The notes beneath the pieces were generated by a model. It was not told where the DNA came from. It made no database searches and worked only from the letters and a program-made list of their open reading frames with translations. This document shows, in pieces, positions 39,543 through 44,330 of a stretch of 62,543 nucleotides of DNA. The DNA comes from an uncultured Clostridia bacterium. Lineage in GTDB: Bacteria > Bacillota > Clostridia > Christensenellales > CAG-917. Each line of letters opens with the position of its first letter. Positions within the stretch are counted from its first letter, which is position 1. The position numbers and the translations under genes are program-made. The DNA lies in assembly GCA_949283145.1 (NCBI GenBank), contig CASDRL010000022.1, positions 1-62,543 of the forward strand. The letters are read 5' to 3'.

Positions 39543-39786
39543 GGAGCGCCTCCGTCACATCTTCGGGCACAGCGCATTTGAACGCCGCATTGAGTGCCTT
39601 TTTCTTTTCGGCGAGCGCGATGCACTCCTTGGTGCGGTGCAGCCACACTCCTCTGCCGTCCGCCTTGCCGGTCGGATCCACGAATATCCTGCCGTCCTTT
39701 GCGCGGCAGATGCGGATCATCTCGGACTTTTCGGCGTGTTCGCGGCAGGCGGCGCACCTGCGCACTCCGGGAGGATTATTCGGCAT
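39529..39786 (-). CDS. ylxR: YlxR (RnpM) RNA-binding protein
   Basis: RRCAACR..K.EMIRI..DPTGKADGRGVW. Confidence 0.9.
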   Translation of the reverse strand: MPNNPPGVRRCAACREHAEKSEMIRICRAKDGRIFVDPTGKADGRGVWLHRTKECIALAEKKKALNAAFKCAVPEDVTEALRESI

Positions 39787-40861
39787 CCGCCGCCTCCTCT
39801 TCCGCCGCGCCTTCCGCCGCCATCACGGAGGAATAGGGTTTGACGTCTATCTTCCAGCCGGTGAGTTTTGCGGCGAGCCTTGCGTTCTGACCGTTCCTGC
39901 CGATGGCGAGGCTGAGTTTTTCGTCGGGGACGACGACGCGCGCGGTCTTTTCCTCCTCGTTGATGGAGACCATGAGGACCTGCGCGGGGCTCAGCGCTCT
40001 TGCGATATATTCGATGGCGTCGGAGCACCACTCGATGACATCCACTTTCTCACCCGCGAGTTCGCCGACCACCGCATTGACGCGCACGCCTTTGTTGCCG
40101 ATGCAGGCGCCCACCGCGTCTACGTTGGGATCTTCGGAATATACCGCGAGTTTCGTGCGGAAACCGCCTTCGCGGACAATGCCCGCGATCTTGACGAGAC
40201 CCGCCTTGATCTCCGGCACTTCCATCTCGAAAAGTTTGCGGACGAAACCTGCCGAACTTCTGGACACCACGACTTGGGGGCCGTTCCTGCCCTCGCGGAT
40301 CTTTTTGATGAACACTTTGATGACGTCGCCGACATTGTAGGTCTCGGTGGGGATCTGATCGCTCTGCGCCATCACGCCTTCCATCTGCGAGCCGCTGATC
40401 TCGACATAGACGGTCGGCCCCTCTTTGCGGCGCACGACCGCATTGACGAGCTCGCCCTGGCGTTCGGTCATCTCGTTGCGCACGAATTCTTTCTTCGCGT
40501 CGTTGAGTTTCTGCATGATGACCTGTTTCGCCGTCTGTGCCGCGATCCTCGAGAACTCCTTGGGGGTGATGTCTTCGATGACGATGTCGCCGATCTTGTA
40601 GGTGGATTTGATCTCGCGCGCCTCTTCGAGAGAGATCTGCTGATCGGGGTCTTCCACCTCTTCCACGACGATGCGGTGAGCATAGACGTTGACGGTCTGC
40701 CTCTCCTCGTTGAAGCGGACCGCGATGGGCTTGCTCTCGCCGTATTCTTTCTTGTAAGCGGCGGCGATGCCGGATTCCAGCGCGTCTACGAGCACTTCTC
40801 TGGAGATTATTTTCTCTTTGGCGAACTCTTCGAGCGCCTGAAAGAATTCTCTGTTGATCAT
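39776..40861 (-). CDS. nusA: Transcription factor NusA
   Basis: RIAAQTAKQVI, S1 and KH domains, DAVGACIG, LAIGRNGQNARLAAKLTGWKID. Confidence 0.98.
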   Translation of the reverse strand: MINREFFQALEEFAKEKIISREVLVDALESGIAAAYKKEYGESKPIAVRFNEERQTVNVYAHRIVVEEVEDPDQQISLEEAREIKSTYKIGDIVIEDITPKEFSRIAAQTAKQVIMQKLNDAKKEFVRNEMTERQGELVNAVVRRKEGPTVYVEISGSQMEGVMAQSDQIPTETYNVGDVIKVFIKKIREGRNGPQVVVSRSSAGFVRKLFEMEVPEIKAGLVKIAGIVREGGFRTKLAVYSEDPNVDAVGACIGNKGVRVNAVVGELAGEKVDVIEWCSDAIEYIARALSPAQVLMVSINEEEKTARVVVPDEKLSLAIGRNGQNARLAAKLTGWKIDVKPYSSVMAAEGAAEEEAADAE

Positions 40862-40870
40862 GGTTTCCTC

Positions 40871-41356
40871 CTAAAACCCGATGTACGGTTGCACCTTGGT
40901 TTTGTTATTTCTGTTGATGGTTTTTTCTTTTTCGTATTTGCCGCCGGTGAGGACCGTAAAAGTCTCCGCCGTGTAGCTCGTGAGTGTGCCGCGCACGGTC
41001 TCTGCGGGCATGATCGCCTCTATCTCGGTGCCGAGAGCGCGTCTGAAATCGTCATCGGTGACGATGGGACGGTCCAGCCCCGAGGAGGAAACGTTGAGGA
41101 TGTAGTACGCGGGGAAAAGATCTTCCGCGGCGTCAAGTGCGTCGGAGACCGCGCCGTGCACCTTCTCGCAGTCGTCGAGGGTGACTTCGTCGGCGTGCCA
41201 GATGAACACGGTCAGGTTGAACTTGCCGTATTCCTTGGTGTAGCGCACCTCGACTATCTCATATCCCGCGTCCAGCGCTTCCACCGCGTCGGAGACGAGT
41301 TTTTCGATCTTGCCGCGCGCGTCTTCGGACAGCGCGGAGCGGGCGTCTTTTGCCAT
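40871..41356 (-). CDS. rimP: Ribosome maturation factor RimP
   Basis: TLDDCEKV, YILNVSSSGLDRP; first gene of the nusA operon. Confidence 0.92.
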   Translation of the reverse strand: MAKDARSALSEDARGKIEKLVSDAVEALDAGYEIVEVRYTKEYGKFNLTVFIWHADEVTLDDCEKVHGAVSDALDAAEDLFPAYYILNVSSSGLDRPIVTDDDFRRALGTEIEAIMPAETVRGTLTSYTAETFTVLTGGKYEKEKTINRNNKTKVQPYIGF

Positions 41357-41374
41357 ATCCTTCTCCTAAAACAA

Positions 41375-41396
41375 AGAGTGAGCGGCTGCTCACTCT
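41375..41396 (-). promoter_or_regulatory. rimP/nusA leader hairpin (attenuator-like)
   Basis: AGAGTGAGC-agcc-GCTCACTCT followed by TTGTTTT just before the rimP RBS; resembles the GAGTG..CACTC hairpin seen upstream of rimP in Bacillota. Confidence 0.6.
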
Positions 41397-41537
41397 CAGT
41401 AGAATCTACTTAAAGCATATATAAATTATCACATAAGAAAAATATATGCAAGCGTTTTCACCCCCGATTTGCAAGAATTTTGCGCGGAATTTTTACTTCC
41501 GCAGCGATATAACGCCGAAATTCGGGGCGAAGCGCGG

Positions 41538-43121
41538 TCAGATGCGCTCGGCGATGATGTTCAGAAGTTCCGCCGTGGCGAACACGTCTCCCATCGCGCG
41601 GTGTGCGTTGATGTGCGTGATGCCGAACATTTTTGTGAGCGCTTCGAGCCCCACATGGCGGGCTTCCGGAATGTATTTCCGCGCCAAAATGATGGTGTCT
41701 TCTAGTTCGTTGTCAAAGACGTATCCTGCCGCGGAAGCGTACTTGTTGAGCAGCGGGAAATCGTAGGAAGAGATGTTGTGCCCCACGAGCACCGCGCCGC
41801 GCGTGAATTTGAAGAAATCGGGCAGCACTTCCGCGAAAGTGGGCATGCCGTGCACCATGGCGTCGTTGATGGAGGTCTTTTCGGCGACTTCGTCCGGGAT
41901 GTGGCACTTCGGATCCAGAAGTGACGTGAAAGTCTCCGTTATCCTGCCGTCCACGATCTTCGCCGCGCCTATCTCGATGGGCTCTATCGTCGCGATGTCC
42001 AGCCCCGTTGCCTCGAAATCGAAGACGACAAAGGTTTTTCCCCGCAAAAATTCCGGGGTCTTTTTCTCGCCGTCGCTCTCAAAGAGGTCTTTTTTGCCGC
42101 GTTCGTCCTTGAAGGGCTGCGGTTTGAGCACGGTATAGCGTGCCGGAACGGGTTTTGAAGGCGCGGCTTGGACGGATGAAAAATCGATCTTAGCGCGGAA
42201 GACCGCATTCACCGCAAAGCTCGGCGCGCCGTTATAGGAGGATATCGTCACCTTGCCCGCGCAGATGACCTCATCCTTTTCCGCAAGGGCGTCGAATGCG
42301 TCCGCGTCCTCGGGGCGCGGGAAACAGACGCAGTCCATCCTGCCGGTGGTGTCGTCGAGGAAAAACCGCACAAGCGGCAGCTCTTCGGGGCCGTTCTTCG
42401 GATCGTCCGGCGTATATTTTTTGTTCTTGTAGGTGCGCTTGGTGACGCCGGTTATCCTGCCGCACAGAACCAGATTGTCGGCTGCGCCTTTGACATCGCC
42501 GATGTATGCCGGCATTTTTGCAATGCCCGCGATCTTACCGCGCGCATACACCTTATCCCCCGTTTCCGCCGAAATGAGCCGTGTGGACGGATCGCGCACG
42601 ACGACGGTGTCGGAAAAATCGTCGAAAGCAGGCGCGGGGGTCGCGCCCGTATCTTTGAGATTCACCGAGACCCGCTGATTGAAGTTGTTGTCCAAAAACG
42701 CCGCGAGATCCTTGGGGATGTCCGAACCCTGAAGCATGAGGAAGAGCGCGCTTTCGAGCGCAAGCGTGACAGAAATGTCGGTTTCGCTCACGGAGATGAG
42801 CAATGTTTCGGGCGAAAGCGCGCGGAAGACCAGATTGTTGTGCGCGTTGAAATATTCCGAAACTTTGTTGCGCACGGTCCCGTCGTCGGCATAAGTCCTT
42901 ATGTATTCCGCGTGCACGGGGATGCCGGGGAAAATGCCCGCTAGAGCGTCGTCAACGCGCTTTTTCATATCGGCGTCGAACGCTCGTGCGGACTATGCCG
43001 AGATGAGAAAACGCACCGTGAGCGTGCCGATATCCTTTTGGAAAGCGGCGGATTTGAATTTGAGCATGGGGAAAGCCCCGTTTGTGACCGCTTCGAATTC
43101 TTCCGTAAATTTGTTCTGCAC
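41538..43121 (-). CDS. PolC-derived protein (N-terminal domain, OB fold, DEDDh 3'-5' exonuclease; no PHP or polymerase) with an in-frame TAG at codon 43
   Basis: GGAGG RBS and GTG at 43121 are in frame with ORF 41538..42968; TAG at 42993-42995. OB-like LVLCGRI..FFLDDTTG..VCF. Exonuclease motifs FDFEATGL, GHN..YD, HRAMGD. Sits between ispG and rimP. Confidence 0.8.
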
Positions 43122-43253
43122 TTTGTTCCTCCGTTTGCGTTCCGCATCCGCATTTTACCGCCCGCGTCCCGCGTTTTGCCTCTGTTTGCTTGCTTTCCGC
43201 GTCATGTGCCGCTCTGTCGGGCAGGGCGGACTTCTCCCGCTTTTACGGGCAAA

Positions 43254-44330
43254 CTACTCTATATTTTTATGATTTTTAGAATACTCTGCAATGTAGTCGT
43301 CGAGGAGAGCCATGAAATAAGGCATAAGCATTTCGCTCCTCACCGTCGCCGCTATCTCGCCGTCTCGCATGATGACGGACTTCTCTTTTCCGCCCGCGAT
43401 GCCGAGATCGCTGTTCCTGCCCTCTCCGATCCCGTTGAGAGGACACCCCATCACCGCGATCTTCAACGGCAGTCTGACATGCGCGGTGGCGCGTTCCACT
43501 GCGGAAGCCAGCCCTTCGACGTCTATCTCCGTGCGCGCGCATGTCGGGCAGGACACCACTTCGACGCAATCCGTTTTCAGCCCCAATGATTTAAGGAGAG
43601 TCTTTCCCGCCAACACCTCTTCTACGGGCGGAGCGGAGAGGGAGACCCGGATGGTGTCGCCTATCCCCTCTTGCAGCAGCGTTCCGATGCCGAGCGCGGA
43701 CTTGACGAGCCCGCTCCTCAGTGTACCCGCTTCCGTCACGCCGAGGTGCAGCGGATAATCGCATACGGCGGCAAGTGCCCTGTTTGCCCGGATCATAGTG
43801 TGCACGTCCGAGGCCTTGATGGCGATGACGATGTCCCTCATCCCGCAGCTTTCAAAGACGTTTGCGCATTCGAGCGCACTCTCTTTCAGCGCTTCGCTCT
43901 CCTCCATACCGTCGAATTTCGGGTCGAGCGATCCGCCGTTCACGCCTACGCGCACGGGCACGCCCGCGTCGGACATCCTGCGCGCAAGCTCTTTTATCTC
44001 GGCAAAATCCCTCATGTTGCCGGGGTTCATACGGATCTTTTTCGCACCGGCATCCAGAGCGAGATGCGCGAGTTTGTAGCTGTAATGTATGTCGGCGATG
44101 AGAGGGAGCCCGCAGCGCTTTGCGATCACGCCGAACGCTTCCGCCGACGCCTCGTCGGGGACGGCAAGGCGGATGAGATCGCATCCCGCGTCCGCGAGTT
44201 CCGCGATCTGACGCAGACTGCCTTCAATGTCGGTGGTGCGCGTGTTGAGCATGGACTGCACCGTTATCGGCGCGCCGCCGCCTATCTTTACTTTCCCGAT
44301 CCTGACCTGACGTGTTTTTCTTCTTTCCAT
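43254..44330 (-). CDS. ispG: HMBPP synthase
   Basis: VQSMLNT, ADIHY, RMNPGN, PLHLGVTEAG, GIGDTIRVSL, CPTCAR, MGC. Confidence 0.97.
   Translation of the reverse strand: MERRKTRQVRIGKVKIGGGAPITVQSMLNTRTTDIEGSLRQIAELADAGCDLIRLAVPDEASAEAFGVIAKRCGLPLIADIHYSYKLAHLALDAGAKKIRMNPGNMRDFAEIKELARRMSDAGVPVRVGVNGGSLDPKFDGMEESEALKESALECANVFESCGMRDIVIAIKASDVHTMIRANRALAAVCDYPLHLGVTEAGTLRSGLVKSALGIGTLLQEGIGDTIRVSLSAPPVEEVLAGKTLLKSLGLKTDCVEVVSCPTCARTEIDVEGLASAVERATAHVRLPLKIAVMGCPLNGIGEGRNSDLGIAGGKEKSVIMRDGEIAATVRSEMLMPYFMALLDDYIAEYSKNHKNIE

Follow-up and report, generated by a model that had tools for sequence, protein, structure and literature searches.

A polymerase-less remnant of PolC at the polC locus of uncultured Clostridia: a candidate second proofreader beside DnaE1

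A gene in the polC slot

The window analysed here is a stretch of 62,543 nucleotides (positions 1 to 62,543 of contig CASDRL010000022.1, assembly GCA_949283145.1) from an uncultured Clostridia bacterium of the order Christensenellales. On its minus strand, between ispG (43254..44330), the upstream anchor of the polC slot, and rimP (40871..41356), the downstream anchor, lies a gene at 41538..43121 that runs from a GTG start at 43121 through 527 codons to a TGA at 41538-41540. Its translation consists of an N-terminal domain (NTD), an OB fold, a linker and a DEDDh exonuclease, all in the order in which PolC has its NTD, OB and exonuclease, and lacks the polymerase. We refer to it as the short form. 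Beyond rimP follow nusA (39776-40861, minus strand), ylxR, an L7Ae-like gene and infB. The order ispG-short form-rimP-nusA is found in the short-form loci that extend to both sides, and sister families have ispG-PolC-rimP/nusA. The short-form gene is the positional orthologue of polC, as its placing at the polC locus in a preliminary description of this DNA had implied.

That description had reported a 527-codon frame between ispG and rimP. Its location and its extent from GTG to TGA stand: in an alignment the start falls at the same position as in 25 relatives (M/V-x-NKFTEEF), and the TGA comes directly after the Exo III helix, leaving 181 bp to the start of rimP at 41356, where about 180 bp had been claimed. 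What was overlooked is a stop inside the frame: in the window, codon 43 (42993..42995, minus strand) reads TAG, and the open frame of the window as deposited has 476 residues, from an ATG at 42968. The TAG is probably an assembly error for TAT (Tyr), because the contigs of four out of four public runs, from four studies, have A and not C at plus-strand position 42993, and because the relatives mostly have Tyr or Phe in this column (Tyr in 9/25 and in the five closest, Phe in 5/25, others varied). The comparison was made with Logan contigs of the four runs aligned to 41400-43300; one of the runs is a possible source of the assembly, and there the base at 42993 is the sole difference across the interval. 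Since contigs and not raw reads were compared, a minor variant could escape. Most likely the gene has 527 codons, and its stop at codon 43 is either a rare variant or an error made in assembly or consensus calling. Recoding of TAG was considered as an account of codon 43 and is unneeded, as TAT in the runs explains the codon.

Two further observations concern the surroundings of the gene. Between its end and the start of rimP there is a hairpin of ten pairs followed by a T-run (41374-41397, minus strand), which could terminate the gene or belong to the leader of the rimP-nusA-infB operon. Across the window (1-62543), cumulative GC skew climbs to about 36-40 kb and then drops; AT skew is mostly above zero within 1-20 kb and, beyond about 32 kb, mostly below it.

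What is kept of PolC and what is lost

Residues 1-160 (42642..43121; this and all following features of the gene are on the minus strand) form an NTD of two KH-like alpha/beta subdomains (about 1-77 and 78-159) that is homologous to the NTD of PolC. The first ~177 residues of 98 family members were made into a profile, and hhalign matched it to a profile of the N-terminal parts of 10 sister-family PolCs with probability 96.4 and E 1.4e-9 over 152 columns, covering both subdomains. The OB-fold domain (residues ~180-312; 42186..42584) is the counterpart of the PolC OB and carries an insert, NKKYTPDDPKNGPEELP, in the short-form family. Its Pfam match (tRNA_anti-codon) stays just short of the cut-off of 27 bits in the window protein, at 25.4, and is present in 26/26 family members, with a best E of 3.5e-11. 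A linker of 48 residues (313-360; 42042..42185), which carries a conserved KPxPxxYxxVxPxPY segment in the consensus of 98 and of 99 sequences, stands in place of the first PHP half of PolC.

The remainder, residues 361-527 (41541..42041), is a DEDDh 3'-5' exonuclease by Pfam RNase_T and TIGR00573. The motifs VFDFEATG, GHNISSYDF and AHRAMGD are present in the translated frame, and the catalytic residues are D368 (42018-42020), E370 (42012-42014), D454 (41760-41762), H507 (41601-41603) and D512 (41586-41588). RNase_T (PF00929) matches residues 314-469 of the 476-residue open frame with E 8e-33, and the cut-off of TIGR00573 (dnaq) is passed with 75.4 bits against 71.5. Both PolC models score below their cut-offs (NF001688, 117.7 bits against 873; TIGR01405, 104.6 against 1043), and the PolC match is confined to the exonuclease, at model positions 419-586 of 1445 with NCBIfam and 419-589 (117.6 bits) when the genome was searched with the PolC model.

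Neither in the window protein nor in the 26 family members does Pfam match a PHP domain, the Pol III alpha catalytic core (PF07733) or the fingers. In a residue-level alignment with the 10 sister-family PolCs the OB folds align and the exonucleases align, the first PHP half of PolC (KRVELHxHT...ITDHGVVQAFP...GxEGY) is swapped for the 48-residue linker in short forms, and the short forms end where PolC runs on into its second PHP half. An ancestral PolC of about 1,400 residues (NTD-OB-PHP[Exo]-polymerase) has been cut down to a protein of 527 residues at the ispG-polC-rimP-nusA locus. Judged by its domains the short-form protein cannot polymerise, because PHP, palm, thumb, fingers and HhH are absent.

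Modelled structures agree with this layout. The closest intact relative, 82% identical, was modelled with AlphaFold2 on the 98-sequence alignment; the mean pLDDT (predicted local distance difference test) is 88.2, and residues 188..527 of the model align to residues 217..590 of Enterococcus faecium PolC (9qpc_A), that is, to OB and exonuclease. Searches of the whole model with Foldseek and VIA were dominated by the exonuclease, whose predicted fold has VIA Z scores of 22-25 to DinG-fused, PolC and E. coli epsilon exonucleases, with DinG on top at 24.6. In the model the helix of residues 509-526, the last of the exonuclease, is the C-terminus, and no C-terminal tail follows it. The NTD of this relative, modelled alone (pLDDT 92.6), appears as two similar alpha/beta units. 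Its best fold matches are ApbC (Z 8.2), domain I of DnaA (7.6 and 7.1), residues 519-593 of tau (5fku_E; 6.9) and DciA (6.6), middling values in a range, 6.6-8.2, that is common for this tool. The PolC structures 9QPC and 9QRN do not resolve the NTD (PMC12592400), and the NI and NII domains of PolC are related to domain V of tau according to a 2026 survey (PMC12926913). The preliminary description had read from the letters a PolC-like N-terminal region, an OB-fold segment and an intact exonuclease, with both PHP halves and the catalytic core missing. The profile comparison, the Pfam matches, the superposition of the OB on that of E. faecium PolC and the alignment with PolCs bear it out on each of these points.

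Replication genes of the genome

The source genome comprises 1.72 Mb in 81 contigs and is 95% complete. A search of these contigs, which the preliminary description had proposed, yielded neither a full-length polC nor the polymerase half of one; the PolC model finds just DnaE and the exonuclease. The absence of polC from one genome at that completeness and in that many contigs is by itself no proof, and the claim of PolC loss rests on the clade-wide pattern given below because the single genome is incomplete. The short form is the only match to PF00929 in the genome. DnaE, of the DnaE1 type, is encoded as a single full copy of 1,188 residues on contig C29. All nine of its PHP metal ligands are identical to those of Taq DnaE, and the pattern HHDHEHCDH occurs in 26/26 DnaEs from both kinds of genome, that of the window included (one short-form row, L185 of genome G001, is an antisense frame and was left out of this count). 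An internal clamp motif of canonical form, QLSLF, is located at residue 939. DnaN and a full-length DnaX are also present. Stop-to-stop frames of DnaE measure 1160-1206 residues in 10 PolC-bearing genomes and 1160-1283 residues in short-form genomes; some of the latter carry extra length. Taken by its gene content, the clade apparently copies its DNA with DnaE1.

Another possibility is that PolC is merely split, with NTD, OB and exonuclease encoded here and a PHP-polymerase half encoded separately. The preliminary description had offered this as an alternative, and two things speak in its favour: PolCs without the exonuclease occur in other Clostridia, both in our class sample and in an earlier survey (PMC3919608), and the genome has a frame of 366 residues (contig C75:19342-20439, plus strand) with pieces of Pol III alpha, namely palm 9-92 of 260 and finger 113-163 of 166. 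That frame, however, resembles DnaE, matches 0/10 PolCs and has counterparts (364-375 residues) in just three other genomes, G007, G011 and G013, which makes 4/41 in all. It is ruled out as a PolC half, being DnaE-like, fragmentary and so rare. Besides, a second full PF07733 match was found in 0/30 short-form genomes, and in the window's own genome the PolC model detects nothing beyond DnaE and the exonuclease. For the genomes searched we reject the split, to which we would assign next to no likelihood.

Distribution, selection and origin

Forty relatives together with the window genome make up a set of 41. In 30 of these the short form is encoded in an open frame without stops: all 25 genomes of the window's family, its own included, and one each from five more families of the order. 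Where no contig end interrupts them, the frames have 484-593 residues, and the trimmed proteins 507-589. Each of the 30 has exactly one full Pol III alpha match, which is DnaE (frames of 957-1283 residues), and a match of PolC size was found in 0/30. In 10 of the 41 the exonuclease match lies inside frames of 1416-1474 residues, and the remaining genome, 51% complete, has PolC-type polymerase matches; these other 11 have DnaE and split PolC-type matches. Short form and PolC never occur together in this set.

The same division extends over the order. Among 151 genomes at least 90% complete, from 38 families, 74 score above the PolC cut-off, another carries a PolC broken up at the ends of contigs, and 76 are without PolC. 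Among the matches listed for these 76, the exonuclease segment lies in frames of mostly ~500-580 residues, accompanied by the polymerase segment of DnaE. No family is mixed: 17 are without PolC and 21 have it. In a class-wide sample 111/121 genomes are above the PolC cut-off, and five of the 10 below it belong to this order. Two genomes of the same class outside the order (G238 and G265, family f73, genus g163; 96% complete) have neither a short form nor, at E<=1e-60, a match to PolC, and may represent another PolC-less lineage with a different solution. In five records labelled Lachnospiraceae (L107, L108, L110, L113 and L115), tblastn matches cover query residues 165-520 or 261-526, that is, part of the OB and the exonuclease.

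In public databases the family amounts to 117 clusters at 90% identity, under generic names such as 'exonuclease domain-containing protein'. A profile of the NTD alone, run against 1.84 billion representatives, retrieved 449 clusters at 50% identity, and the 150 of these that were listed are all of at most 589 residues, being short forms or fragments. With 299 clusters beyond the listing, this search does not independently prove that the NTD is homologous to that of PolC. The record titles of related loci are Clostridia metagenome-assembled genomes, Christensenella/Christensenellaceae, Candidatus Coproplasma, Candidatus Scatosoma and Subdoligranulum sp. CAG:314; the loci come from animal and human guts.

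The catalytic residues D368, E370, D454, H507 and D512 are invariant in 26/26, 98/98 and 99/99 sequences. The ratio of nonsynonymous to synonymous substitution rates (dN/dS), calculated after Nei and Gojobori for nine within-genus pairs, is 0.10-0.17 for the whole gene, with dS at 0.7-2.2, near saturation, so that this ratio and those that follow are approximate. By part, it is 0.11-0.27 for the NTD, 0.05-0.16 for the OB and 0.05-0.12 for the exonuclease, the best-conserved part; the 42 codons upstream of the TAG have 0.06-0.26. By these ratios, the short form is under purifying selection in all domains.

These figures bear on two other explanations. One is that the gene is a decaying polC pseudogene, marked by random truncation and the stop at codon 43. 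An in-frame TAG in the window and a protein that has shed over 60% of its ancestral length are what decay would leave. Against it, the runs have TAT in four cases out of four, the codons upstream of the stop are as constrained as just described, frames of 507-589 residues with the same architecture are open in 25 relatives from 6 families, the catalytic residues do not vary, and the loss is consistent by family over 17 families. The dN/dS values and the TAT in the runs lead us to reject decay, whose probability we regard as negligible. The preliminary description had argued for selective retention, and the low dN/dS, the invariant DEDDh residues and the clade-wide occurrence go the same way. 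It had also proposed to profile the short form against loss of polC; short form and PolC exclude each other in 41/41 genomes. Of the findings it had named as contrary to itself (an N-terminal half without PolC homology, a full-length polC elsewhere together with a sporadic short form, relaxed selection in orthologues) none was made.

The other explanation is that the role of the protein is architectural and its exonuclease secondary: the NTD-OB module would organise the replisome, for instance by bridging DnaX, DnaE or the helicase. NTD and OB are present in all 25 full-length relatives examined, the NTD profile has its 449 clusters and the NTD its dN/dS of 0.11-0.27, and the predicted NTD fold is like that of replication docking modules (tau domain V, DnaA domain I and DciA, Z 6.6-7.6), in keeping with the relation of NI and NII to tau domain V described in PMC12926913. 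It is the exonuclease, however, that is best conserved and whose catalytic residues are invariant in 98/98 sequences, and a purely structural role needs neither; the fold matches of the NTD are weak, too. We therefore think such a role improbable.

Whether the conversion occurred once can be judged from two trees. In a tree built from the domains that 25 short forms and 10 PolCs have in common (524 columns), a single branch splits the two kinds, with support of 100/100 (bootstrap/SH-aLRT, the Shimodaira-Hasegawa-like approximate likelihood ratio test). In a DnaE tree of 27 genomes, 10 PolC-bearing and 17 short-form genomes are split by one branch with SH-aLRT 100; this tree includes the antisense row mentioned above, with a branch length of 10. 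The picture is consistent with a single conversion of PolC to the short form and leaves it unproven, because both trees are unrooted and the rate of DnaE may have shifted after PolC was lost.

A candidate clamp tether

Within the linker, residues 343-347 (42081..42095) read KKDLF. This is the local form of a family consensus QxSLF(D/E), which resembles the QL[SD]LF clamp-binding motif and may act as one. In 99 sequences, position 1 is Q in 70, position 3 is S, D, T or N in 92, position 4 is L, F, I, M or V in 98, and position 5 is F, L, I or V in 88. In the AlphaFold2 model residues 341-350 have a pLDDT of 56 and form the one stretch of low confidence between folded parts. Sister PolCs carry such a motif at their C-terminus or within ~5 residues of it, in the region that the short form has lost. 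The complex of the genome's own beta-clamp dimer with the segment of linker and exonuclease (residues 255-476 of the 476-residue open frame), predicted with alignments for both partners, scored 0.25 and 0.13, where the mark is 0.32, in a single run without controls, and counts neither in favour of clamp binding nor against it. We take the linker motif, on grounds of pattern, to be a candidate beta-clamp-binding site. In E. coli, alpha and epsilon share one clamp dimer, and the clamp motif of epsilon comes after its exonuclease. The QxSLF-like motif of the short form and the internal clamp motif of DnaE, taken together, mean that these two could likewise share one clamp dimer.

What might the short form do?

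Several suggestions can be made as to what a PolC without its polymerase might be for. The one that we favour, and hold to be probable though far from settled, is that the short form is a PolC-derived second proofreader of a replisome that has DnaE1 only, probably tethered to the clamp. The lineage gave up the PolC polymerase, and the gene is what remained of polC: the 48-residue linker took the place of the first PHP half, everything beyond Exo III was lost, and the NTD, the OB and the DEDDh exonuclease were kept. On this proposal DnaE1 would copy both strands, and the remnant of PolC would work at the fork as a separate 3'-5' exonuclease that proofreads or edits primer ends. It would do so alongside the PHP domain of DnaE; since that domain has an intact site, the short form would be the second and not the sole proofreader. 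The QxSLF-type motif in the flexible linker between OB and exonuclease would dock the remnant into the beta dimer's second pocket. Further hold may come from the OB fold, by way of single-stranded DNA, and from the KH-like NTD, as a protein-docking module of the kind seen in tau domain V or DnaA domain I. Proofreading for DnaE and tethering through NTD and OB, as the preliminary description had suggested, seem plausible.

A number of points weigh against this proposal. The Pfam models for the PolC NI and NII domains are listed for 0/26 family members. The PHP site of DnaE is complete, and a DnaQ-type proofreader is not obviously needed. The strict clamp pattern Q..L[FLM] occurs in 42/99 sequences, the window's own KKDLF is without Gln at position 1, and the motif lies N-terminal to the exonuclease, unlike that of epsilon. 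All members seen come from metagenome-assembled or uncultured genomes. To these may be added the limits already given for the NTD fold matches, the substitution rates, the trees and the completeness of the genome.

It is also conceivable that the protein works away from the fork, as an exonuclease that repairs DNA or processes its ends, for example by trimming 3' ends on single-stranded DNA held by the OB. An OB fold with a DEDDh exonuclease is a generic design for processing such ends, DnaE has a proofreading site of its own, and the exonuclease is as close to DinG-fused and 'DEDD exonuclease domain-containing' families as it is to PolC (NF005906 gives 125 bits and the PolC model 118; the top structural match is to DinG, Z 24.6). 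But the protein descends from a replicase and keeps the NTD and OB of that replicase under purifying selection, its gene stays in the polC slot, it contains a peptide like a clamp motif, and it is the sole DnaQ-type exonuclease found in the genome. We regard a repair role as unlikely, albeit somewhat less so than the architectural role considered above.

If the short form is indeed a second proofreader, one may go further and ask whether the family is a living intermediate in a change of replisome type: from PolC with DnaE1 to DnaE1 only, the PolC polymerase having been deleted and NTD-OB and exonuclease kept as an accessory subunit that rides the clamp beside DnaE1. We put this forward tentatively and with more doubt than belief. 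Were it true, the NTD and OB of PolC would have a function of their own apart from polymerisation by PolC, and stand-alone DnaQ-type proofreaders could arise from PolC.

Whatever its function, the short form is a natural dissection of PolC, in which NTD and OB are parted from polymerisation, and it supplies a candidate accessory proofreader for clostridial DnaE1. In about half of the order as sampled (76/151 genomes, 17/38 families) PolC is replaced by a conserved NTD-OB-exonuclease protein. There may be a practical side to this as well. The pocket of the PolC polymerase is the target of PolC-directed antibiotics such as ibezapolstat; because commensals of this clade lack it, they may escape such drugs and be spared.

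Comparison with known systems

Surveys of bacterial replicases (PMC3919608, PMC12926913) distinguish three systems, DnaE1 alone, PolC with DnaE1, and PolC with DnaE3, and mention a few Clostridia with DnaE1 only. With the short form, one stage of the path that has been proposed 'towards single DnaE1 by losing PolC' is on record. In the literature searched, supplementary tables of these two surveys excepted, we came across no account of a PolC stripped of its polymerase and retained as NTD-OB-exonuclease. The later survey used complete genomes, removed truncated sequences before building trees and, in its text, places stand-alone DnaQs in Proteobacteria, Actinobacteria and Treponema only (PMC12926913). 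The DnaE1 of Clostridia has been credited with every property of a self-sufficient replicase, as well as with a putative patch for binding epsilon that is conserved (PMC3919608).

With PolC, as known from E. faecium (PDB 9QPC), the short form shares the locus, a homologous NTD, the OB and the DEDDh exonuclease, in the same order. It differs in having no PHP, palm, thumb, fingers or HhH and no C-terminal QLSLF, and in its length of 527 residues against ~1,400. A rearrangement of the reciprocal kind has been reported: 6% of PolCs, in Clostridia and Negativicutes, are without the exonuclease insert (PMC3919608). Both are rearrangements of PolC domains in Clostridia that have DnaE1, but there the polymerase is kept and the exonuclease lost, whereas the short form keeps the exonuclease, NTD and OB and loses the polymerase. 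In our class sample about 18 Clostridia have, among the matches listed, PolC frames of ~1200-1360 residues that match the model from about position 600 on. Two of them, G192 and G226, have a second match in the same frame to positions 17/22-408, meaning that the exonuclease insert is missing (e.g. G192:C63:15194-18874); G192 has in addition a separate DnaQ-like frame of 279 residues (C20:4497-4997).

By its sequence, the short form is a DnaQ-family exonuclease of PolC descent, and comparison with DnaQ (epsilon) of the E. coli type is instructive. Each is a stand-alone DEDDh exonuclease in a genome whose sole replicase is DnaE1; the short form passes the TIGR00573 cut-off, its model has Z 22 to epsilon structures, and it has a candidate clamp motif beside the catalytic domain. 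It differs from epsilon in the PolC NTD and OB in front and in the motif before, not after, the exonuclease. It also lacks the C-terminal alpha-binding tail, epsilon's tie to the PHP domain of alpha, which is a further point to be set against a proofreading role. The partner differs too, since the DnaE of short-form genomes has an intact PHP, unlike alpha-, beta- and gamma-proteobacterial DnaE1 (PMC3919608).

The nearest analogue of the working proposed here may be the non-canonical DnaQ of mycobacteria, which binds the clamp and proofreads together with the active PHP domain of DnaE1 (PMC11348249). The short form, too, occurs together with a DnaE1 that has all of its PHP metal ligands. The two are of different origin and architecture, the mycobacterial protein being without the PolC NTD and OB.

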